Of a stretch of 64,000 nucleotides of DNA, positions 16,395 through 61,121 are shown in pieces (position 1 is the stretch's first letter; each line of letters starts with the position of its first letter). The translations under genes were made by a program, and so were the position numbers. Under the pieces are notes generated by a model that had not been told where the DNA came from, did no database searches, and was given only the letters and a program-made list of their open reading frames with translations. Source of the stretch: Clostridiales bacterium (GTDB lineage Bacteria; Bacillota; Peptococcia; DRI-13; UBA5745); assembly GCA_038562165.1 (NCBI GenBank), contig JBCFAO010000012.1, positions 19,850 through 83,849 on the forward strand. The letters run 5' to 3'.

Positions 16395-16612
16395 TGACTG
16401 CACAAAAATGCAGGTTTGTAACCTGGCGCGCCCTCAGATGAGCAAAATTGCAGGTTTGTATCTGCTTAAAAATGTTGAAAGACGGGTTTTTCGCTGTATT
16501 TAGGGCCAGAGGCGAAATGGAACCACTAAACTTAAAGGAATGATACGCTACAAACTTGAAATTTTGCTCAAAATGGTTCCGCTATCACTGACAAACCTGC
16601 AAGGTTTGCACA
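16395..16612. repeat. Family A modular inverted-repeat element, copy 1
   Basis: Core CAAAAWTGCAGGTTTGT at 16403 and 16443 (+). Inverted cores ACAAACYTG.A..TTTG at 16550 and 16591. 40-41 bp module spacing. Confidence 0.75.
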
Positions 16613-18574: not shown

Positions 18575-19891
18575 TTACTTCTTCAATACCTTGCCGTCAA
18601 AAGCCTTGCTTAACACGGTATAGACGATCAGCGTAAAGACGAAGGCCACCACGGGAGAGACGAAGAAATTGAGTTCCAAGCAAACCTTACCGCAAATACC
18701 GCCCAGAATCCAGGATGCGATAGCGATAGGATTGATATCAATATTGATCTTACTGTTTTTCACAAAATAGCGCTCCGCCACAATCAGGGCAGGCACAGGT
18801 GCTAACAGCACAGACAGGAAGGAAATGATGGGCAATAAATATTTGAGCGCGCCCACAAAGGCAAAGATAGCGGCACAGGCAGAGATGCTAATGGCTATCT
18901 GGGCGTGAGTGATTTTGCCCTTCAGCTTTGTTTCGTTAAAAACATTTTGCAAAGCCAGAGAGGCGCCGTAAATGTTGTTGTCTTGAGTGGTCCACAGGCA
19001 GAAAACGGAGCAGGCAAAAACGAGATAGCCTAAGCCTAAGGCAGCGGTAGCGGCCGAGAAATTGCCGTTTTTCGTGGCCATGGCTACCAGAACGCCGATA
19101 AACTGCAGACAAAACAGTCCGATGAAGAAGGCTAAGGTGCCGCTGACCAATACGGTTTTTTTACTTTTGGCATAACGGCAGACGTCCGGCGTGATAATAC
19201 AGCCAAAAACCCAGCTGCCCACCACCGAGGCAGAGGCGGCGGTAAAGGTCATGGTTTCCCCGGGTACATAAGAGAAAATCGAGGTATAGCCGCCGGTTTT
19301 GAGGCCCACGCCGATGAAGCAGGCTACAGAAAGCACAATGGCGGCCGGCACACCCAAAAAGGAGATGAACTCCAGGCCTTTATAGCCCCGGATAGCGGAT
19401 TGAGCCCAAATAAAAATAACAATAACGCCGGTAATGGAAACGGGAATAGGCCACCAGGCAAAGTTGGTTTGGATCATGCCGGCAAAGGTATTGCCGTTAA
19501 TGCCGATCCAGTTGACGGCGGATAAAGCCAGCAATATGGAGAAAATGCTGGAACCCTTTTTGCCGAAGGCCGTGCGGGAGAGGAAGGAGGTGGAAAGTCC
19601 GGTTTCATAAGAAATAAGGCCTGTACAAACGGCGACAAAAATCAGAAAAGCGTCTGCCGCCAGAATAGCGGTCATGGCCTGGGCAAAAGACATTTTGATG
19701 CCGATAGCAGCCCCCGTAACGAAATTAGACAAGGCAATGGGGTAACCGGCCAACACCATAAAAAGGCTGAGGCCCCCTTTTTTCTTATCTTCCGGTACGG
19801 CTTCAAAAGCGTATTCGTAAGCGCCTTCTTCCTGGACTGCGGGGGGGTTGTTTTGTGATTCTGACAAATCTGTTCTTTCTAATTCTGGCAT
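18575..19891 (-). CDS. NCS1-family permease (cytosine/purine/nicotinate-type, CodB-like)
   Basis: 438 aa, 12-TM pattern, CodB-like N-terminal region. Strong RBS GAGGAGG. Adjacent to the nicotinate cluster. Confidence 0.7.
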   Translation of the reverse strand: MPELERTDLSESQNNPPAVQEEGAYEYAFEAVPEDKKKGGLSLFMVLAGYPIALSNFVTGAAIGIKMSFAQAMTAILAADAFLIFVAVCTGLISYETGLSTSFLSRTAFGKKGSSIFSILLALSAVNWIGINGNTFAGMIQTNFAWWPIPVSITGVIVIFIWAQSAIRGYKGLEFISFLGVPAAIVLSVACFIGVGLKTGGYTSIFSYVPGETMTFTAASASVVGSWVFGCIITPDVCRYAKSKKTVLVSGTLAFFIGLFCLQFIGVLVAMATKNGNFSAATAALGLGYLVFACSVFCLWTTQDNNIYGASLALQNVFNETKLKGKITHAQIAISISACAAIFAFVGALKYLLPIISFLSVLLAPVPALIVAERYFVKNSKINIDINPIAIASWILGGICGKVCLELNFFVSPVVAFVFTLIVYTVLSKAFDGKVLKK

Positions 19892-28844: not shown

Positions 28845-29930
28845 TTAGCATTCGATTTTGTAATCGCCAGACTTGATCATGCCTTGTTTGCGCATAAGCT
28901 CTGAGGTTAGCCAGGCCACTGCGGCGGGAATGACGATGGCGATGAGCAGAAGGCCCAGCCAGTCAAAAGCGGTAGCGCCGGTGGCCACTTCGCCGAGATT
29001 GGCGGCAGCTTCAGAAGGCGTAAACCAGCCGGTGATGACGCCGATGGGGCCTACCATACCGGAGGTGCCCATGCCGGAGGCGATGGGAGGACCGTTTTGC
29101 TTCAATTTGAAAATCATTGTAGCAACAGGGCCGTTGACGATGGAGGCAACCACCGCCGGCAGCCAGAGAACAGGCTTGCTCATCAGATTGGGTACTTGCA
29201 GCATGGAAGTACCGAGGCCCTGAGCCATCAGGCCGCCAATCTTGTTTTCCCTGTAGGAGGCCACACCAAAACCTACCATGTGGGCGCAGCAGCCGGCTAC
29301 GGCAGCGCCGCCGGCCAGACCCACCAGGCCTAAAGCTGCGCAGATGGCAGCAGAGCTGATGGGTAAGGTAAGAGTAATACCCATGATGGCGGAGACCAGG
29401 ATACCCATCAGGAAGGGCTGCATGTCGGTGGCCCACATAATGGCATAACCGATGGAAGAAGCGACTTTGCCGATGGGAGGCGCCAAAATGACGGCGGCGG
29501 TAACACCCACGACAATGGTCACAAAGGGTGTGGCAATCAAGTCGATAGGCGTAGTTTTGGAAACCAGTTTGCCGGCAAAAACGGCAATAAGAGCGATAAA
29601 GAATACGGCTAAAGGACCGCCGGCGCCGCCTAAGGAGTTGGCCGCCTGACCTACGGCTACCAAGGAGTAAAGGACAAAGGGCGGGGCTTTTAAAGCGAAG
29701 CCGATGGATACGGCCATGGCCGCACCGGTGCCGGCCGTGGCAAAGCCGCCGATTTGGTTAAGGAAAGGAATGCCTAATTGAGTACCGAGGGTATTGATAA
29801 TGGTACCAATTAATAAAGATGCAAAAAGACCTTGAGCCATAGCGCCGAGGGCGCCGATACCGATTCTGTTCCAGGTAATTTCAATACCTTGCTTTTTCAT
29901 AAAAGCGGAAAAGGATTTAGGTTCTGACAT
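28845..29930 (-). CDS. Polytopic membrane protein, PTS-EIIC_2-like (stand-alone; putative pathway transporter)
   Basis: 361 aa. N-terminus ...ITWNRIGIGALGAMAQGLFASLLIGTIINTLG resembles the orphan EIIC_2 family. No other PTS components nearby. Confidence 0.5.
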   Translation of the reverse strand: MSEPKSFSAFMKKQGIEITWNRIGIGALGAMAQGLFASLLIGTIINTLGTQLGIPFLNQIGGFATAGTGAAMAVSIGFALKAPPFVLYSLVAVGQAANSLGGAGGPLAVFFIALIAVFAGKLVSKTTPIDLIATPFVTIVVGVTAAVILAPPIGKVASSIGYAIMWATDMQPFLMGILVSAIMGITLTLPISSAAICAALGLVGLAGGAAVAGCCAHMVGFGVASYRENKIGGLMAQGLGTSMLQVPNLMSKPVLWLPAVVASIVNGPVATMIFKLKQNGPPIASGMGTSGMVGPIGVITGWFTPSEAAANLGEVATGATAFDWLGLLLIAIVIPAAVAWLTSELMRKQGMIKSGDYKIEC

Positions 29931-29960
29931 AGATGATCCCCCTCTCAGTGATCGATCGAT

Positions 29961-29989
29961 AATATCTTATGAAAAGATACCGTGGTCAA
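29961..29989 (-). promoter_or_regulatory. Candidate sigma-70 promoter for the transporter gene
   Basis: Minus strand TTGACC-17 nt-GATATT, about 30 nt upstream of the ATG region. Confidence 0.4.
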
Positions 29990-30028
29990 ACTGCAAAAAC
30001 CATCTATTGCCCCTGCGTACATTGCCGG

Positions 30029-30210
30029 ACATCTGCGCCCCAAGTTCTTTTCGGATAGCAGATTGAGTCCGAAGGCCATCTGCGCCCTGATATCTTCGGA
30101 TAGCAGATTGAGTCCGAAGGCCATCTGCGCCCTGATATCTTCGGATAGCAGATTGAGTCCGAAGGCCATCTGCGCCCTGATATCTTCGGATAGCAGATTG
30201 AGTCCGAAGG
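30029..30210. repeat. Tandem array, 45 bp x4 (three perfect copies), each unit carrying a hairpin
   Basis: Unit CCATCTGCGCCCTGATATCTTCGGATAGCAGATTGAGTCCGAAGG at 30076, 30121 and 30166. Diverged first copy at 30029-30075. Inverted repeat CTTCGGA-N12-TCCGAAG in each unit. Confidence 0.9.
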
Positions 30211-30386
30211 ACACTTTTGTTTTCAACGTACGCAGAGCTCTGTAACACCCCCTTCTTTAGGGTTTTCCTGATTGCTCTATCACCGGATTCCGCCGGCCCA
30301 AGGTCCTTTGCTTTAAGCATTGCACCGAACCTTGAGCCGGCTAAGCCATAGGCAATACGATAGGGATTCCAACAGGCCTAATCGTA

Positions 30387-32630
30387 TTAGCTGCGGATCT
30401 TTTTCATCACTTCCGTAGGCATTAGAGGAAGCTCGAAAAATCTCTGACACAAAGCGTTTTCCACAGCATTGGTAATGGCGGGAATACCCGGTATCAAAGC
30501 AGGCTCACCGACGCCTTTGGCGCCGAAGGGACCGGCCTCTCCAGGACACTCAACGATAATGGGATAAATTTCAGGTGAATCCATAGCGGTGGGAATCAGA
30601 TATTTTGAGAAAATGGGGTTTTTGATTTTACCCTTTTCGAATTCGATTTTTTCAAAAACGGCAAAGCCTTGAGCCATCACCATGCCGCCTTCGATTTGGC
30701 CTTCCACCATCTCCCGGTCTACGGCCTGGCCTACGTCATGGGCAGAAATCAGTTTCTGCACATCCACTTCGCCGGTGCTGGTATCTACAGACACTTGGGC
30801 GATGGTGGTGCCGTAAGAATAGATCTCGTAAGGAATACCGGCCATGGTTTTGGCATCCAGATAGGTGGTCTTGGGGTTGTAAGCGCCGGCGCCTACTGCC
30901 AGCTTGCCCCATTTTTTCATCTCAGCCATCAGCTCAGGGTACGTCATTTTGATGGCGGGGTCCTTGGAGCTGTAGATCATCCGGTCACGGAAGATCAGGT
31001 CTTCTTTGGGCACATTCAGAAAATTGGAAGCGGTCTCGGCTAAGGTATCCTTAGCCTGCTTGCAGGCATTTCTGGTGGCGTTGCCGGAGATAAAGGTCTG
31101 GCGGCTGGCTGAAGAGGCGCCGCCTTCCGGTGTTACCATTGTGTCGGCGGCAACAACATGAATGTCGTCATAAGAAAGACCCAGTTCTTCGGCGGCAATG
31201 GCGGCCATAACCGTGGAGGAGCCCTGGCCGATATCGGCGCAGCCTACCATCAGGTTGACGGAGGCGTCAGCCAATACCTCGACGAAAGCGCCGGCGGGAT
31301 TGGGCAAGCCGGTGTTGCCGACGCCGTACCACATGCAGCCTACGCCGATGCCTTGGTTTTCTTTGCAGGGATCCAGCACTTCCGCCGCTTTTTTCTTGGC
31401 TTCCAGCAGGGTATCGACAAAACCTACAGCCTCGTCCAGCACCTGGCCGGTGGCCAGCACCGTGCCGGGCCTTTGGGCATTGAGAATCCGCAGGTCGATG
31501 GGATCCATATTAAGAGCCTTAGCCAGTGCGTTCATCTGGCCTTCATGGCAGACGGAAACCTGGGGTACGCCAAAGCCCCGGAAAGCGCCGCACATAGGGT
31601 TGTTGGTGTAAACAAAATCTGCATCAATCCGCACATTGGGCACATCGTAGGGACCCATGGCGTGGACCACGGCTCTGGTGATAACCGCGGGACCGTAAGA
31701 GGCGTAAGCGCCGGTATCGCCGGTCATGAAGACTTCCGTTGCTAAAACCTTGCCGTCTTTGGTGGCGCCGGTTTTGGCTTTCATCACCATGGGATGGCGC
31801 TTGGCGGAAACGTCGGTGGACTCTTTACGGCTGCGGACCATCTTCACAGGGCGGCCGGTGGCGTTGGTCAAAAGAGCCAAGTGGCACTGGACGGAAATAT
31901 CCAGCTTGCCGCCGAAGCCGCCGCCGGTGGTTACCTGCATTACCCGGACCTTGTTGTTGGGCAGGCCCATGGTTCTGGCCACCTCGCCCCGGTCAAAATG
32001 GGCGTTTTGGGTGGAAGCATAGACGGTGAGAATGCCGTCTTCGATACGGGCTACGCCGGCATCGGGCTCGATAAACATATGGGACAGCATATTGGTGGTG
32101 TAAGTGCCTTCGACGATAACGTCACATTGGGCAAAAGCTGCATCCACATCGCCGGATTCCAAATGCTTGCGGGCATGGAGGTTGCTGTCGCCATGGACTT
32201 TGATGGCGCCCTCTTTCATAGCGTCCTCATAGGAGAGGATGGGCTCCAGGAGGTCGTACTCCACTTCCATTAGCTCCAAAGCTTCTTCCACCAGCTCCGG
32301 TGTTTCGGCGGCTACGATAGCGATGGCGTCGCCTACCCGGCGGATCTTGTCGTCCACCAGTACCGGCTCATCCTTCATAATGATACCGATGCGGTTGCCG
32401 CCGGGGATATCCTTGGAGGTCAGCACACAAGCCACACCAGGCAGGGCCAGAGCTTTGGAAGCATCGAAGCGTTTGATGGTGGCATGGGGCACTGTGCTGC
32501 GGAAAACACCGCCGTACAGCATATGGTCGAATTTTAAATCGGCGGCAAATAAAGCCTTGCCGGTAACTTTATTGTAGGCGTCCTTTTTTACATTGGCTTT
32601 GCCCAGGACTGCCAGATCACGTAATGCCAT
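30387..32630 (-). CDS. Molybdopterin-binding subunit of a xanthine-dehydrogenase-family hydroxylase (nicotinate dehydrogenase; corresponds to NdhL+NdhM as one polypeptide)
   Basis: 747 aa. [11 protein letters not shown] motif. Uninterrupted ORF following the FAD and 2Fe-2S subunit genes. Confidence 0.8.
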
Positions 32631-36731: not shown

Positions 36732-38237
36732 CTAGGCATCGCCTTTTAAGGTTTTGACATCCTTGACCTGATCCATATGACCGCCAATAGCCTCGTAGTC
36801 CGATAGCTTCATGGTATACTCCACCGGCGCCACCGTAGCGGGAGTGGGGACCCAGCTAAAGCCGTTGGCTACCACTTGCTCGGTATCGATGATGAAGTTG
36901 ATGCCGCCGCCGGGAAGAATAAAGGTGGGAGCGCCGCCGATGGTCAGAACGGCTTTGCCGGCGTGGACGGCTTTGGAAAGAGCCAGAGGCTTCTTGCAGA
37001 CGCCGCCCCGGGCGCTGCCGCCGGTACCGCCGGTGTACATCACGGAACAGCGGGATTCTTCACAGGCTTCATTGATGGCTTTCGGCACCCGCAGGGCTTT
37101 TTCCGTCATGGGGATGGCCTTGACTTCGCCGTCGGCCTGTAGCTCAAAGAGCTCATGAATCTCACCGGTGGTATTGACCACCAGAATCGTCATGCCCGGT
37201 TTGGCAATGGACATATCCACGCTCTTGATGGCATCCCGGCAGCTCATCAGCGTAGTGCCGCCGATGCCGTCGCCGTGTTCGCCAAAGTAGCGGCCCCGGG
37301 AGCTCTTGGTGGCGTTGGGCACCACGCCGCTCCAGGAAAGGCCGATGGCAGCGCCGGCCAGATGCTCGGTGCATAAGCCGATGACATGATGGTCGATAAC
37401 CAGGCATTCGTCCACGCATTCTTTCATGAGATAGGCAAAGAGGCCTACGGTAGCGCTGCCGCAGCCCAGGCGCATTTTCTTTTCCTGAACGCCGTTGATG
37501 ATGGGGGCTTTGCCGGCCTGCATGCGGACTTTGTATTTCTTGTCTACGGAAACTTCCACTTCCTGGCCGTTGGCCAGTTCCACGATGGTGCGGGCCGTCA
37601 TGAAGCCGCCGTCACCGGTGAGCCGGTTAGCGCCGCCGATGGCGATCATTTTGGAGCCGTATTCTTCCGTATTGACCATACCCACAACTTTGCCGTCACG
37701 GTAGACCTTGGCGCCCTCTTCGCCGATATAGCTGTTGGTATCCAGCTTCACAATCAGGCCGCTGTAGCTCAAAGGTGCTTCTGTGACAACGGTAACCACA
37801 TCCACGCCCTCTCTGCTTTCCTTGACGATATGGGGAGCAGGCAGGGAGCAGGGGTAGTTGGCGCCGCCGCCGACGGCGGTAATGATGGGCCGGCGGATAT
37901 TTTCCTCGGGGGAAACTAAATCCTTGGGCTCCAAAACATGTTCCAAAGTTCTTTCCAGCTTGCCGTTTCTGTTGGCGTAGCGTTTGCAAGCACCGGTAGC
38001 GCCTTCAGGAACCCGGCACTGAATGGGACAGTTGCTGCATATTACGGCGGCAGCCGGCAATTCGTCGGTTTTCTCCAAAGCTTTAAAAGGACAAACCCGG
38101 ACGCAGATGCCGCATTGTACGCAGGAATCTTTAATGTGCAGTTTTTTTCCTTCTAAGTACAAAGCTTCTACGGGACAGTTTTTTACGCAAATACCGCAGC
38201 TTTTACAATTTTCGTTAACGATGATCACTAAATCCAC
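36732..38237 (-). CDS. hnr: 6-hydroxynicotinate reductase (N-terminal 2x[4Fe-4S] ferredoxin domain)
   Basis: CKSCGICVKNCP and CVQCGICVRVCP, then CSNCPIQC...C. About 500 aa. Start ambiguous (GTG at 38237 or GTG at 38228). Confidence 0.78.
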   Translation of the reverse strand: MDLVIIVNENCKSCGICVKNCPVEALYLEGKKLHIKDSCVQCGICVRVCPFKALEKTDELPAAAVICSNCPIQCRVPEGATGACKRYANRNGKLERTLEHVLEPKDLVSPEENIRRPIITAVGGGANYPCSLPAPHIVKESREGVDVVTVVTEAPLSYSGLIVKLDTNSYIGEEGAKVYRDGKVVGMVNTEEYGSKMIAIGGANRLTGDGGFMTARTIVELANGQEVEVSVDKKYKVRMQAGKAPIINGVQEKKMRLGCGSATVGLFAYLMKECVDECLVIDHHVIGLCTEHLAGAAIGLSWSGVVPNATKSSRGRYFGEHGDGIGGTTLMSCRDAIKSVDMSIAKPGMTILVVNTTGEIHELFELQADGEVKAIPMTEKALRVPKAINEACEESRCSVMYTGGTGGSARGGVCKKPLALSKAVHAGKAVLTIGGAPTFILPGGGINFIIDTEQVVANGFSWVPTPATVAPVEYTMKLSDYEAIGGHMDQVKDVKTLKGDA

Positions 38238-39833: not shown

Positions 39834-41405
39834 TTATTCAATGCCAAATTCTTTGATTTTTCGCCAGAGGGTGATGGTGCTGATACCCAGCAGGTCGGCG
39901 GCTTCTTTTTTAATGCCGCCGGCATGATGCAAGGCGTTTTTGATGGCTGCAATCTCCGCATGCTGGATCTGGTCCTTTAAATTGAAAGATTTGCCCGTTG
40001 GGCCCCTGTGGCCCTGACTCAAGTTCAGCAAATAAGGGGGCAGGCTTGAACTCAGCAACCGGCTTTCGTTGACGCTGGTCATATTCATAGCCCGTTCCAC
40101 GCAGCTTTTCAACTCCCGCACATTGCCGGGCCAGTGGTGGCTCATTAAAATGTCGTAAAATCTGTCTTCGGCGGAAAAGACGAATTTTCCCAACAGCCGG
40201 TTAAATTCCGCAATAAAAGTTTTAACCAGCAGGGGAATATCCTCCTTGCGCTCCCGCAAAGGGGGGATGCGGATCTCGATGACGTTGATGCGGTAGTAGA
40301 GGTCCTCCCGGAAACGGCCTTCTTTGACAGCCTGAAGCAGGTCGCTATGGGTGGAGGAAATAATGCGGACGTCCAGCTTAATCGGCGTGAACTCCCCGAT
40401 GCGCATTACCTCTTTTTCCTGAATGACCCGCAGCAGTTTTGTCTGCAGGTCCGGCGGCATTTCACTGATTTCGTCAAGAAAAATCGTACCCGTATTGGCC
40501 TGCTCGAAGGCGCCGCTGCTGCCTTCTTTTTTGGCACCGGTAAAAGCGCCGCCGGAATAGCCGAATAAATAGCTTTCGATGATGCTGGCCGGTATGGCGC
40601 CGCAGTTGATGGCGACGAAAGGCTTATCCCGCCGGTCGCTTTCGTTATGGATAGCCTGGGCAAAGAGCTCTTTACCGGTGCCCGTTTCCCCATTGAGCAA
40701 AATGGAGGAGGCCCGGGAGGCCGTAAGGCACAAGTGCTTGGCATAAGTGATTTTTTCGCTTTCGCCTACAATATCCTTTAAATTGTAGCGGGCGGTCTGA
40801 AACTTTTTAACTTCCTCAAATAATTTTTTCTCATGGTGGACGGTGAGCTCGTTATTGAAGCCCAGACCGTATTCTTTAGTAATAGGAATGCGGATAGCCA
40901 TGGCCCCGTGAACGGAGGTGGATTCGCCGAAGGTGGGGGTTTGCTCCTCCATGGCTTTGCGGGCCAGCTTGCTGACCTTGCCGATTTGCTTTTCAATAAC
41001 CTTGCCAGCGGCGTCTACCGTATTGAGCCGTAAGCCGTTTTTATCGAAAATAACGGCTTCGCCGCCTACGAGGCGGGCAATAAAGGGCAGGGCCTGATCC
41101 AAAGATTTGACCAAGGCTTGATCCCTGGCGGTTTTGGCGGTGTTGCTGGCGGCAATCACGTAGTCGCCGAAGGGAATGGCCCAGGTTTGGGCGTCATTGG
41201 CGATTTGAGAGAAACCGATCTTGATCTGGCCGCTTTCACCGGCTTCCCGGGCCAGGTCGTAAACCATGCCCCGCATTTCCGTCAACTCCGTGCCGGAGGA
41301 ATCGTAAGTCCTGATCCGGATGCCGGCGGTGTCGGTGATTGTGGAATAGCCTTCGCAAATTTGGGCGATGGATTTTAAGGCATCTTCAAATTGGGCAGCT
41401 TCCAT
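39834..41405 (-). CDS. Sigma-54-dependent transcriptional activator (bEBP) with an uncharacterised N-terminal sensor domain
   Basis: 523 aa. GETGTGKELFAQAIH Walker A, GGAFTGA loop, C-terminal Fis-type HTH. Confidence 0.88.
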   Translation of the reverse strand: MEAAQFEDALKSIAQICEGYSTITDTAGIRIRTYDSSGTELTEMRGMVYDLAREAGESGQIKIGFSQIANDAQTWAIPFGDYVIAASNTAKTARDQALVKSLDQALPFIARLVGGEAVIFDKNGLRLNTVDAAGKVIEKQIGKVSKLARKAMEEQTPTFGESTSVHGAMAIRIPITKEYGLGFNNELTVHHEKKLFEEVKKFQTARYNLKDIVGESEKITYAKHLCLTASRASSILLNGETGTGKELFAQAIHNESDRRDKPFVAINCGAIPASIIESYLFGYSGGAFTGAKKEGSSGAFEQANTGTIFLDEISEMPPDLQTKLLRVIQEKEVMRIGEFTPIKLDVRIISSTHSDLLQAVKEGRFREDLYYRINVIEIRIPPLRERKEDIPLLVKTFIAEFNRLLGKFVFSAEDRFYDILMSHHWPGNVRELKSCVERAMNMTSVNESRLLSSSLPPYLLNLSQGHRGPTGKSFNLKDQIQHAEIAAIKNALHHAGGIKKEAADLLGISTITLWRKIKEFGIE

Positions 41406-41503
41406 AGGCGTTTCCTTTCTTATCCCGATAGCGGTTTTTTATCAGGAATCGGGATTAAGGGTTGATTATAGCGGTTATTGATGTAGAATGAACAATAGAG
41501 CCT

Positions 41504-41593
41504 GAATTCGAGAAGCTTGAATTCGGGAGGCCGGAATCCGAAAAGCTTGAATCCAAGAAACTGGAATCCGAGAGGCCGGCATTCAAAAAGGGA
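41504..41593. repeat. Tandem array, 15 bp x6 (GAATYCGAGARGCYK), ending 8 nt before the downstream ATG
   Basis: gaattcgagaagctt / gaattcgggaggccg / gaatccgaaaagctt / gaatccaagaaactg / gaatccgagaggccg / gcattcaaaaaggga. Confidence 0.85.
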
Positions 41594-43140: not shown

Positions 43141-43430
43141 TTCAACTTTGCAGCTTTACATCTCATGCCATAGCGTGTTGTTCAAAATTGCAGGTTTGTA
43201 TTGCCTGCTTATAGCATTTTGCTCAAAATTGCAAGTTTGTAGGACGTATTTTGGCCTGGAAATAGGGTTTTCACCCATTTATGGGCCGAATTTGTTCCAA
43301 AGCAGGGATTTAGAGGTATACAAACCTGCATTTTTGCTCAGTTAGTCAAAGCGAACGATAACAAACTTGCAATTTTGAGCAGTTAGCTATGTCACACCCT
43401 AACAAACCTGCAATTTTGAGCAGTTAGCCT
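43141..43430. repeat. Family A modular inverted-repeat element, copy 2
   Basis: Cores at 43183 and 43224 (+, 41-bp spacing; degenerate one at 43141). Inverted cores at 43320, 43361 and 43402 (41-bp spacing). Confidence 0.8.
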
Positions 43431-50101: not shown

Positions 50102-50155
50102 TTAGCCTTTTTCGCATCTTGTTTTTTATTGCGTTTTTTTGGGGAGGTAAATTCG

Positions 50156-50755
50156 TTGAAACTGATTGTGGGATTGGGAAATCCCGGACTTACTTATGCC
50201 CATACCAGGCATAATGTAGGCTTTATGATGGTGGACCGGCTGGCAGAACTTTGGGATGGGGCCTGCGAAAAAAAGCAGGGCCAGGCTTTGGTGCGCACGG
50301 CCAATGCGGCAGGCGAACGCTTATTGCTGGTGAAGCCTCAGACCTTTATGAATCTCAGCGGCGATTCCCTTTGGGAATTGGTGAATTTTTATAAAGACGG
50401 CATCGAGGATCTCATCGTTATCCATGATGATCTGGATCTGCCTTTAGGTAAACTGCGGTTCAAAAGCGGCGGCGGCACCGGAGGCCACCGGGGCCTAAAG
50501 TCCATTACCCAGCGTCTGGGCACCGACAAATACGACCGGTTAAAAATCGGCGTAGACCGGCCGCCGGATTTTATGACCACGGAGGCTTATGTTTTGCAGG
50601 CTTTTTCCATAGAGGAAAAGGGGCTGCTGGACAAGGTGCTTGATAAAGGGGCCGAAGGACTTCGCTATTGGCTGACGGAAGGCTGCGTGCCGGCCATGAA
50701 TAAGTTTAACTCCACTGACCTGCGGCCGTTGCCGCCGGCAGAAAATAATGAATAA
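50156..50755 (+). CDS. pth: Peptidyl-tRNA hydrolase
   Basis: KLIVGLGNPG, HNVGF. TTG start at 50156, 8 nt after GGAGG (the ORF track starts at 50129). Confidence 0.9.
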   Translation: MKLIVGLGNPGLTYAHTRHNVGFMMVDRLAELWDGACEKKQGQALVRTANAAGERLLLVKPQTFMNLSGDSLWELVNFYKDGIEDLIVIHDDLDLPLGKLRFKSGGGTGGHRGLKSITQRLGTDKYDRLKIGVDRPPDFMTTEAYVLQAFSIEEKGLLDKVLDKGAEGLRYWLTEGCVPAMNKFNSTDLRPLPPAENNE

Positions 50756-50846
50756 AGGACATGTGGAACGAGTTCCACCGAAAAATGAATAAAGGATAGG
50801 TGGAACGAGTTCCACCGAAAATGGATGAAGGATAGGTGGAACTTGG
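50741..50846. repeat. Tandem duplication (39, 37 and about 30 bp) spanning the pth stop and the mfd start
   Basis: GAAAA(T)AATGAATAAAGGAyAkGTGGAACGAGTTCCACC twice, then a truncated third copy containing the mfd ATG. Palindrome GTGGAACGAGTTCCAC at 50763 and 50800. Confidence 0.8.
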
Positions 50847-57904: not shown

Positions 57905-58190
57905 AACCGGCGCCGCTGCTCAAAATTGCAGGTTTGTCGCTGTTCAGCAAGGCTAACTGTGCAAACTTGCAAGTTTGTCGCCGTTCGCCGTATCTAACTG
58001 AGCAAAATTGCAGGTTTGTCCACCCAAAATAAGCCTTAAATTTAAAATTATGAGGGGAAAATTATATTTATACCATAAACTTGAAACTTTAAACAAAAAA
58101 TAGCATGAATGAGGGATACAAACTTGCAATTTTGCACAAATGGGCCTAAGGCCAGGTACAAACTTGCAATTTTGCACATGAGCCTCAGCC
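57905..58190. repeat. Family A modular inverted-repeat element, copy 3
   Basis: Cores at 57921, 57962 and 58003 (+, exact 41-bp spacing). Inverted cores at 58118 and 58158 (a degenerate one near 58075). AT-rich centre. Confidence 0.8.
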
Positions 58191-59486: not shown

Positions 59487-59674
59487 GCCTCCCCCTTATA
59501 TATCGGAGATACCTTTGCAGCATCCCGGCAATAATCTTAAATAAAACTCTGGTTTAAGCCCAATTATACGTCATTTTCGGCGGCTGTACAATTCAGCTCT
59601 CTAGGGAACCAACTTTTGTATACTTATATGTATACGCGGAAGTATACGCCAAAGGCCTTTTATCAGGAAAAAAC

Positions 59675-59737
59675 CATTGTTATAATAAACATTGTTATAA
59701 TAAACATTGTTATAATAAACATTGTTATAAATAACAT
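59675..59737. repeat. Tandem array, 15 bp x4 (CATTGTTATAATAAA), each unit an extended -10 box
   Basis: Units at 59675, 59690, 59705 and 59720 (the last is TATAAA). TGTTATAAT occurs three times. Ends about 30 nt before the gdhA RBS. Confidence 0.85.
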
Positions 59738-59768: not shown

Positions 59769-61121
59769 ATGAGCGGCGTATTAAAAAATGAATATTTGAA
59801 GAAGATCTTTGATGAAGTTATGGAGCGGGACCCCCATGAACCGGAATTTCAGCAGGCCGTCTTTGAGGTGCTGGAATCTCTGGAGCCGGTGGTAGAAAAA
59901 CGGCCGGATATTGTGAAGGCTGATGTTATCCGCCGCCTGGTGGAGCCGGAACGGCTGATCATCTTCCGGGTGCCCTGGATGGACGATGCCGGCAATATGC
60001 GGGTGAACCGGGGCTTCCGTGTACAATATAACAGCGCTATCGGGCCTTACAAAGGCGGTCTGCGTTTTCATCCTTCCGTTAATGCCTCGATTATTAAATT
60101 CCTGGGCTTTGAGCAATGCTTTAAGAACTGCCTGACCACCATGCCCATGGGCGGCGGCAAAGGCGGTTCCGACTTTGATCCCAAGGGTAAATCCGATAAT
60201 GAAGTTATGCGGTTTTGTCAAAGCTTTATGACGGAGCTGTACCGCCATGTGGGCCAGTTCACCGATGGGCCTGCCGGCGATATCGGCGTAGGCGCCAGGG
60301 AGATCGGCTATCTCTTTGGCCAGCACAAACGGATTACCAACGAATTTAACGGCACCATGAGCGGCAAGGGTATTCCCTACGGCGGTTCTTTAGGCCGCAA
60401 GTCCGCTACCGGTTACGGCTTATGCTACTTTACGGCCAATGCCCTGTCTGCTAAGAGTGACAGCTTTGCCGGCAAAACCGTGGTGGTTTCCGGCTCCGGC
60501 AACGTAGCCATTTATGCCTGTGAGAAAGCCCAGGAGATGGGAGCTAGGGTAGTGGCCATGAGCGACTCCTGCGGGTACATCTACGACGAGAAGGGCCTGG
60601 ATATTGAAATCATCAAAACCCTCAAAGAAGTAAAGCGCTGCCGGCTTTCCGAATATGCCCAGGCAGTTCCCGGTTCCGTCTACACAGAGGGCTGCTGCAA
60701 CATTTGGAGCGTTCCTTGCGATATCGCCCTGCCTTGCGCTACCCAAAATGAGATTGATATCAAAGCAGCCCAGCTTCTGGTAAAAAATGGCTGCAAATGC
60801 GTGGCGGAAGGATCCAATATGTCTTCCACTGCGGAAGCTGCTTACTACTTTATAGAGTCCGGTATTTTATATGCACCCTCCAAGGCAGCCAATGCCGGCG
60901 GCGTCGCCGTATCCTGGATGGAAATGAGCCAAAACTCCACCCGCCTGCCTTTGACGGAGGAGGAGATCGATGCCAAGCTCCGGAAGATCATGAAGGATAT
61001 TTATGAGAATGTATCCTCTGCCGCCAAAGAGTTTGGCCTGGAAGGCAATTTCGTAGCCGGCGCCAATATCGCCAGCTTCCTGAAAATCGCCGAGGCCATG
61101 ATGGCTCAGGGTTGCTGCTAA
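59769..61121 (+). CDS. gdhA: NADP-specific glutamate dehydrogenase
   Basis: 450 aa. PMGGGKGGSDFDPKG catalytic-Lys motif. Confidence 0.93.
   Translation: MSGVLKNEYLKKIFDEVMERDPHEPEFQQAVFEVLESLEPVVEKRPDIVKADVIRRLVEPERLIIFRVPWMDDAGNMRVNRGFRVQYNSAIGPYKGGLRFHPSVNASIIKFLGFEQCFKNCLTTMPMGGGKGGSDFDPKGKSDNEVMRFCQSFMTELYRHVGQFTDGPAGDIGVGAREIGYLFGQHKRITNEFNGTMSGKGIPYGGSLGRKSATGYGLCYFTANALSAKSDSFAGKTVVVSGSGNVAIYACEKAQEMGARVVAMSDSCGYIYDEKGLDIEIIKTLKEVKRCRLSEYAQAVPGSVYTEGCCNIWSVPCDIALPCATQNEIDIKAAQLLVKNGCKCVAEGSNMSSTAEAAYYFIESGILYAPSKAANAGGVAVSWMEMSQNSTRLPLTEEEIDAKLRKIMKDIYENVSSAAKEFGLEGNFVAGANIASFLKIAEAMMAQGCC

Follow-up and report, generated by a model that had tools for sequence, protein, structure and literature searches.

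The tandem array in the spacer between the nicotinate dehydrogenase genes and an EIIC_2-like transporter gene is a minisatellite that varies between strains. It derives from a rare palindromic insertion of BOX-like layout, about 100 nt in length, the inner module of which was amplified to give the array. With a single copy of that module, the insertion comprises, in succession, one 12-bp inverted repeat, a short flank, the structured module (45–47 nt) and the second 12-bp inverted repeat, which matches the first and closes the insertion. We consider it probable that the locus is best explained as a BOX/MIRU-like VNTR inside a small composite palindromic element, and that the array is most likely a near-neutral polymorphism.

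An array of three perfect 45-bp copies followed by a diverged one, as described in the original prediction, is indeed present in the window (the whole 64-kb stretch of DNA that was analysed). It was delimited by TRF at 30050–30210 (period 45, 3.6 copies, 100 % matches, score 322) and was found alike by a repeat finder and by pattern searches, and no shuffled sequence reproduced it. The 45-mer occurs three times without mismatches in the window, with no occurrence in 100 shuffles, and a 26-nt hairpin core occurs four times, three of them exact and one with a single mismatch. Units were read in the sense of the two flanking genes, both of which lie on the minus strand. The motif CTTCGGA-N12-TCCGAAG, thought to be contained in every copy, holds for the three identical units, designated P-type, and fails in the terminal unit, U4, in which TCCGAAA replaces TCCGAAG, leaving 6/7 pairs, and the spacer is of another sequence and 2 nt longer.

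The 456-nt spacer contains, in this order, CTGCGTACGTTG, a 13-nt flank, three 45-nt units, one 47-nt unit, CCGG and CAATGTACGCAG, with both terminal inverted repeats being complementary in 11 of their 12 positions (Table 1). The left flank module is the same in the window and in the alleles L011, L001 and L022, and is unique within the window, and the right inverted repeat was found in all alleles recovered. The only other site in the window resembling the inverted repeats (38113–38124) lies inside a 4Fe-4S ferredoxin-type CDS, and we considered it a chance match.

Table 1. Features of the array, of the composite element that contains it and of its surroundings, in window coordinates.
Feature	Coordinates	Strand	Description
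Molybdopterin subunit gene (ndhL-like)	30387..32630	-	747 aa, upstream of the array; Pfam Ald_Xan_dh_C, MoCoBD_1, MoCoBD_2
Left terminal inverted repeat	30224..30235	-	CTGCGTACGTTG; 12 nt, 92 % complementary to 30013-30024
Left flank module	30211..30223	-	AAAACAAAAGTGT; 13 nt, from the inverted repeat to the first unit
Three identical P-type units	30076..30210	-	CCTTCGGACTCAATCTGCTATCCGAAGATATCAGGGCGCAGATGG
U1	30210-30166	-	P-type, 45 nt
U2	30165-30121	-	P-type, 45 nt
U3	30120-30076	-	P-type, 45 nt
U4	30029..30075	-	Terminal 47-bp hybrid unit; 5′ arm as in P-type, 3′ arm and spacer as in the single-copy A-type
Right terminal inverted repeat	30013..30024	-	CAATGTACGCAG; preceded by CCGG at 30025-30028
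Sigma-70-like site TTGACC-17-GATATT	29961..29989	-	40 bp downstream of the array; context, outside the repeat
PTS_EIIC_2-family transporter gene	28845..29930	-	361-aa membrane protein, downstream of the array; Pfam PF13303, E = 1.8e-82

The array is real, and both its copy number and its unit composition differ between strains. Alleles were sought through contigs encoding exactly the transporter of the window. Two of these, L001 (a Logan contig from SRR13787010) and L011 (MAG Clostridia bacterium R1-B15.2, the GTDB representative), span the site with a single unit, CCTACGGACTCAATCTGCTATCCGAAAAGAACTTGGGGCGCAGATGT, and belong to the same species as the window because they are 96–98 % identical to it over several kb. 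Their spacer is of 321 nt, exactly 135 nt (3 × 45) shorter than that of the window, and lacks the triplet of P-type units, with their sole unit differing from U4 in one base. In a third allele, represented by L003–L005 (98.4 % identical), a P-type terminal unit is joined directly to the right flank. Most Logan unitigs start 100–150 nt upstream of the transporter gene, inside the array or at its edge, as is expected of a k=31 graph, which breaks at a perfect repeat. L002, L007, L008, L009 and L022 break in this way within a multi-copy array resembling that of the window; among them, L002 and L022 (SRR28122454, k=31 unitigs) are 100 % identical to the window and end at the two array edges, exactly where the repeat k-mers converge. 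The original prediction had proposed a comparison of copy numbers between strains, and these do differ, with one unit in L001 and L011 and at least two units, with unchanged flanks, in six other samples (L002–L009); the value from short-read unitigs is a lower bound, and the count of four is that of the window assembly. The suggestion that the array expanded recently is likewise supported.

A perfect repeat of about the length of a short read might be suspected of being an assembly artefact that would collapse on re-assembly, or else, since 45 is a multiple of 3 and a 117-aa ORF (30320–29967, minus strand) passes through the array, of being a protein-coding repeat. We give hardly any credence to this explanation. 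Independent unitigs from several runs carry P-type sequence and end exactly at the repeat boundaries, which speaks against an artefact, and with k = 141 the 161 nt of perfect repeat fall short of the sum of k and the period, which would permit unambiguous assembly. As to coding, unit variants differ by indels of 1–2 nt (units of 45, 46 and 47 nt), no ORF of at least 20 aa overlaps the homologous unit of a sister species (L012, see below), and the Pfam hits of the ORFs across the array are artefacts of repetition, with no single stretch above threshold. The array is non-coding, in line with the original remark that the ORFs across it encode only repeated peptides.

Pfam searches supported the gene context originally assigned to the array, between nicotinate dehydrogenase genes and an EIIC_2-like transporter gene (Table 1). 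The cluster around both genes also encodes FAD and 2Fe-2S subunits, a 3-hydroxyisobutyrate-dehydrogenase-type enzyme, large and small subunits of aconitase type, a B12-binding protein and PrpF, a gene set that we take to match the nicotinate-fermentation cluster of Eubacterium barkeri (Alhapel et al. 2006). The PTS_EIIC_2 protein is 75–89 % identical across the MAGs of loci L015–L032, labelled Peptococcaceae, Treponema, Synergistaceae, Oscillospiraceae and Clostridiaceae, and its gene is found in variable contexts, including nicotinate clusters in four lineages and positions beside trp, thr and shikimate genes and beside a P-type ATPase gene. The comparison of these sequences suggests a widely exchanged transporter. 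No intrinsic terminator (a GC-rich hairpin plus a U tract) was found in 29850–30450, and read-through from ndh is therefore plausible. The promoter-like site predicted some 40 bp past the array exists and is conserved in all alleles; it matches in 9/12 positions, about chance level, and constitutes weak evidence by itself because approximately one such site (0.7) is expected by chance in this stretch.

The proximity of this site to the array is compatible with a contingency (phase-variable) spacer, in which gain or loss of units would shift the distance and the helical phase between an upstream site and the transporter promoter and thereby switch expression between strains. The copy-number polymorphism within one species is in agreement with this, as are the 40 bp separating the array end from the promoter-like site and the arithmetic of 45 bp, about 4.3 helical turns, by which each unit would produce a phase shift. 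A homologous transporter gene in an Oscillospiraceae MAG also has an unrelated array, of 60 bp × 4, ca. 155 nt upstream. Against it, a promoter match of this quality is expected by chance, an upstream activator site is not known, and, as counted from the TRF table and the ORF lists, about one in ten intergenic gaps of the window carries an array with units of at least 30 bp, so that two of ten homologous loci represent no enrichment. Additionally, classical contingency loci have short units and switch on and off through promoter spacing or reading frame. Altogether, we regard a contingency spacer as an unlikely explanation of the array. We also dismissed tandem arrays as a shared trait of this transporter family; although 4/10 of the upstream regions contain repeats, these are unrelated and appear at the rate of the genome background.

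Two of these upstream regions are worth describing on their own. In the Oscillospiraceae MAG GCA_009777775.1 (L019, 2608–2844), the hairpin-bearing array of 60 bp × 4 follows trpF, and the transporter is 80 % identical to that of the window; a second assembly of this transporter gene (L020) begins inside the 60-bp array. In L021 (2768–2807), there is a repeat of 11 bp × 3.6 together with a terminator in the equivalent ndhL-transporter spacer. We treated the arrays of L019 and L021 as a coincidence, their rate being about that of the window background. Other arrays of a similar kind are found in the window at 50747–50842, 43320–43428 and 57921–58020, and its genome seems prone to intergenic arrays.

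The hairpin of the original prediction, with a 7-bp stem and a 12-nt loop, is perfect only in the amplified P-type units and does not appear to be the functional core of the module. The perfect P-type unit folds about as well as shuffled sequence (RNA, −9.3 kcal/mol, z = 0.07; DNA, −5.6, z = −0.9), and the single-copy variants contain a mismatched version of the stem (CUACGGA/UCCGAAA) and are predicted to adopt another fold. This is an extended hairpin of three stacked stems, GGAC/GUCC (GUUC in L012), AUCUGC/GCAGAU and UCCGA/UUGGG (UUGGA in L012), with energies for the single-copy units of −15.4 and −15.1 kcal/mol (z = −2.7 and −3.2). For complete elements, the predicted energy is −35.8 kcal/mol with one copy (z = −3.9) and −89.8 with four (z = −4.2), and either fold is closed by a stem of the paired inverted repeats. 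A direct reading of the P-type unit shows that it keeps the middle stem, has weaker inner and outer stems (12/15 pairs) and has gained the alternative 7-bp stem. We also evaluated a pseudoknot between AUCUGC in the loop and GCAGAU in the spacer; the pairing is real, but it corresponds to the middle stem of the extended hairpin in the older variants, and a pseudoknot might form in the P-type units.

A search with the exact 22-nt core of the unit retrieved two matches among 185,579 GTDB species-representative genomes, one per genome and both from Clostridia MAGs. The first is the R1-B15.2 locus described above. The second locus (L012, from the sister species MAG Clostridia bacterium SM1-B15.1) is situated between a DUF401 gene and an EamA transporter gene, and contains a 48-nt unit in sense orientation. 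This unit is identical to that of R1-B15.2 in 28/28 core positions and in 10/10 positions of GCGCAGATGT, with differences located only between them, in a variable apical loop. The orthologous EamA gene in the species of the window (90 % aa identity; L033 from SRR28122454 and L035 from GCA_018437145.1) has no unit, while the promoter-proximal 75 nt are kept. The order of ndh-like genes, transporter and aconitase-type subunit genes is shared by three other lineages, L015 (Peptococcaceae, 82–84 % nt identity), L021 and L023, with ndhL-transporter spacers of 159 nt, 272 nt and 137 nt (L023-28), respectively. Neither the unit nor the inverted repeats are present in these three spacers. Comparison of these sequences indicates that the insertion in the ndhL-transporter spacer is specific to one Clostridia species and missing from more distant nicotinate clusters. 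Two loci at which the unit is present in some genomes and absent from others are what a mobile or recombining repeat would produce, and not what is expected of a regulator dedicated to one of the genes.

The family to which the unit belongs is rare. A profile search of the window and of the first 12 loci, later extended to 14 further loci, recovered only the array, its allelic copies and the L012 unit; a weak profile match at 19389–19407 was discarded for being inside a CDS. Likewise, a scan of JGI metagenomes with an 18-mer gave only two chance matches, unrelated and in GC-rich sequence, and the searches produced no matches in viral contigs or plasmids and one marginal match in phages (E = 6e-3). 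We thus ruled out an abundant REP-like family. The possibility, raised at the outset, that the unit is a generic REP-like element occurring at unrelated loci was correct in that a homologue lies in an unrelated spacer of the sister species, but not in that the family would be generic. Rfam searches of the whole window gave no match at the gathering score, those of 29880–30450 at E ≤ 10 gave only noise, and a known structured RNA family was discarded as nothing of substance appeared at E ≤ 10 in the window and the L015 spacers.

These comparisons bear on the possibility that the unit is a cis-regulatory RNA module, a hairpin or an H-type pseudoknot bound by a protein or a ligand, that controls the downstream transporter, with tandem copies providing cooperativity or titration in the manner of tandem riboswitches or of multi-site RNA-binding attenuators. 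At each of the two known loci, the unit precedes a transporter gene, in the sense orientation (PTS_EIIC_2 here, EamA in L012), and the loop AUCUGC is complementary to the spacer GCAGAU in every variant. The sense strand also folds somewhat better than the antisense, for which z was −2.2, −2.2 and −2.9 versus −2.7, −3.2 and −3.9. The two variants L011 and L012 conserve the stems, with two one-sided, pair-preserving changes (U-G to U-A and G-C to G-U), and differ in the length and sequence of the apical loop. As judged from these two sequences, this mosaic conservation looks like selection on structure, and it would fit a functional RNA too. Conversely, no double compensatory change was found between L011 and L012, and there was no Rfam match even at E ≤ 10. 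Unlike a dedicated regulator, the unit is missing upstream of orthologous transporter genes, both for PTS_EIIC_2 (L015, L021 and L023) and for EamA (L033 and L035), and the amplified P-type unit lost much of the conserved extended hairpin (12/15 pairs; z = 0.07). Moreover, the putative promoter is downstream of the array, so that its transcripts would not contain the array. We therefore assign a low probability to a cis-regulatory module controlling the transporter. The related proposal that the 45–48-nt module is an undescribed cis-acting RNA, placed upstream of transporter genes in this lineage and with a predicted extended hairpin able to switch to an alternative hairpin or pseudoknot, is doubtful as well; if true, the tandem amplification would be a natural dose tuning of a regulatory RNA site.

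It was also proposed that the array is a row of DNA operators (TTCGGA-N12-TCCGAA) for a dimeric transcription factor, which would belong to the nicotinate regulon. Each unit contains an inverted repeat of 6–7 bp, and a sigma-54-type activator is encoded 10 kb away (39834–41405). This proposal is very difficult to maintain, since conservation is no weaker in the N12 spacer (the loop) and in the distal 10-mer than in the half-sites, and the half-site centres are separated by 19 bp, which is atypical. The palindrome appears nowhere else in the 64-kb nicotinate region, conspecific strains have one unit with mismatched half-sites (CTACGGA/TCCGAAA), and the unit is missing from orthologous clusters.

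Among known repeat systems, the architecture closest to that of the element is the BOX of Streptococcus pneumoniae, organized as boxA-boxB(n)-boxC, in which the ends of boxA and boxC are complementary and the 45-bp boxB is the only module in tandem (PMC3049150, PMC1315331). The number of boxB modules differs between strains, with longer arrays varying more, and the predicted fold of boxB involves few interactions with boxA and boxC, so that the number can change without disturbing the overall fold (PMC3049150, PMC1315331). Effects of BOX on the expression of neighbouring genes were reported, and these elements are often co-transcribed and predicted to fold tightly (PMC3049150, PMC1315331). As in BOX, the outer modules of the element pair through inverted repeats (here, 30224–30235 with 30013–30024), and only the inner module, of 45 bp, is repeated in tandem, in a strain-variable number and with high internal identity. 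In contrast with BOX, which occupies many loci per genome, the element was found once in 64 kb and once per MAG, and its outer modules, of 25 nt and 16 nt, fall well below those of BOX in length. The likeness is one of layout, with no known sequence relationship; the 22-mer core appears only in the two Clostridia MAGs mentioned above, and the host is from an uncultured Clostridia lineage instead of a streptococcus.

The array also resembles the MIRU-VNTR loci, described as minisatellites with units of tens of bp, situated between genes of an operon-like cluster and with strain-variable copy number (PMC3635867). Similarly, the array has units of tens of bp, is located in an intercistronic spacer and is polymorphic in number. 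As reportedly described by Supply et al. 1997, MIRUs occupy about 40 loci and contain short ORFs that overlap the flanking stop and start codons. Differing from these, the ORF 30320–29967 of the window starts 66 nt after the ndhL stop codon and ends 36 nt before the start of the transporter gene, without overlap.

REP/BIME and ERIC elements can attenuate transcription or alter mRNA stability (summarised in PMC3049150). Like the element in the window, they are imperfect palindromes in transcribed intergenic spacers. REP elements are present in hundreds of copies per genome and are tied to RAYT transposases, of the Y1 type, via a 5′ GTAG, whereas the unit of the window is rare, and its CTAC is on the other side of the palindrome in A-type units and mutated in P-type units. 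With MITEs, the element shares 12-bp terminal inverted repeats, a strongly folded interior and its presence or absence between related genomes. Nevertheless, no target-site duplication is visible at the element borders, where AGAGCT followed by CTGCGTAC on one side and GTACGCAG followed by GGGCAA on the other do not form a direct repeat. The window contains a single copy with these ends. An IS that could act as partner is not known, nor did the analysis identify a transposase whose ends match. The reading as a dispersed element rests on two loci in two species, which is a thin data set. The novelty here is the BOX-like layout in an uncultured Clostridia lineage, the small palindromic intergenic VNTR in itself being a known phenomenon.

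We favour the explanation that the inner module was multiplied head to tail in some strains, by replication slippage or unequal recombination, which would have given rise to the three identical units. The terminal hybrid unit looks like the recombination junction of two unit types circulating in the population, since an unequal crossing-over between them would give exactly its combination of a P-type 5′ arm with an A-type 3′ arm and spacer. The spacers of P-type and A-type units differ in several substitutions and a 2-nt indel, so that a simple duplication of the single-copy unit would not have produced the array, and this explanation accounts for its origin only in part. Given the absence of an upstream terminator, co-transcription of the element with ndh is probable, and pairing of the inverted repeats would then fold its RNA into a compact domain of several hairpins. 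By analogy with the BOX, BIME and ERIC elements, such a structure could reduce the read-through that reaches the transporter gene, or protect the mRNA upstream of it against 3′ exonucleases. Since a putative promoter of the transporter gene itself lies 40 bp beyond the array, any effect of copy number is probably small; we rank a weak, copy-number-dependent tuning of expression second, after a near-neutral polymorphism. If copy number did change the expression of the transporter or of ndh, the locus would be a simple natural system for repeat-dosage tuning of an operon junction. The array is also a ready strain-typing marker for this organism in metagenomes, and breaks short-read assemblies exactly at the operon junction, so that the cluster is split in most public assemblies.

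The part of the spacer situated upstream of the insertion (30240–30386, minus strand, in the window; 3842–3942 in L015) contains the conserved blocks GCCTATGGC, CCGGTGATAGAGC, TCAGGA and AAGGGGG, in this order, in species that are 82–84 % identical. A hairpin with a 15-bp stem is inserted between GCCTATGGC and CCGGTGATAGAGC in the window. These blocks did not show any match in Rfam or any other copy in the window, and they are possibly, as seen in two lineages, a conserved cis-element of the transporter or of the operon junction.

The region also contains a second, commoner repeat, the 17-mer CAAAATTGCAGGTTTGT / ACAAACCTGCAATTTTG, the 15-nt core of which has 14 matches versus 0.36 expected. 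It forms inverted arrays, with 2–3 copies per side, a period of 41 bp and a centre of 85–100 bp, at 16403–16610, 43183–43418 and 57921–58174 in the window. Single motifs are found in L012 at 2509–2523 and 2672–2686, one on each side of the 48-nt unit. Arrays 1 and 2 enclose the nicotinate cluster, and arrays 2 and 3 a segment of 14.5 kb. The third array is in a convergent gap, and these arrays are thus not simply operators; they could be MITE-like elements or multi-site ends of transposon type.

Three further tandem arrays, the first already mentioned, were observed close to gene starts or in a divergent gap. The intercistronic array at 50747–50842 (37 bp × 2.6 copies, 91 % matches), between ORF 50129–50755 and a 1200-aa ORF starting at 50825, has in each unit the hairpin GGTGGAAC-GA-GTTCCACC and an RBS-like AAGGA, and looks like a duplicated start region of the 1200-aa ORF. 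A perfect array of 15 bp × 3.7 (CATTGTTATAATAAA; 59669–59737) is situated just upstream of ORF 59769–61121, and another with periods of 15 and 45 bp (AGCTTGAATCCGAGA × 5; 41499–41590) occupies the divergent gap beside the sigma-54-type activator gene. Either of these last two may be a promoter or an activator-site repeat.
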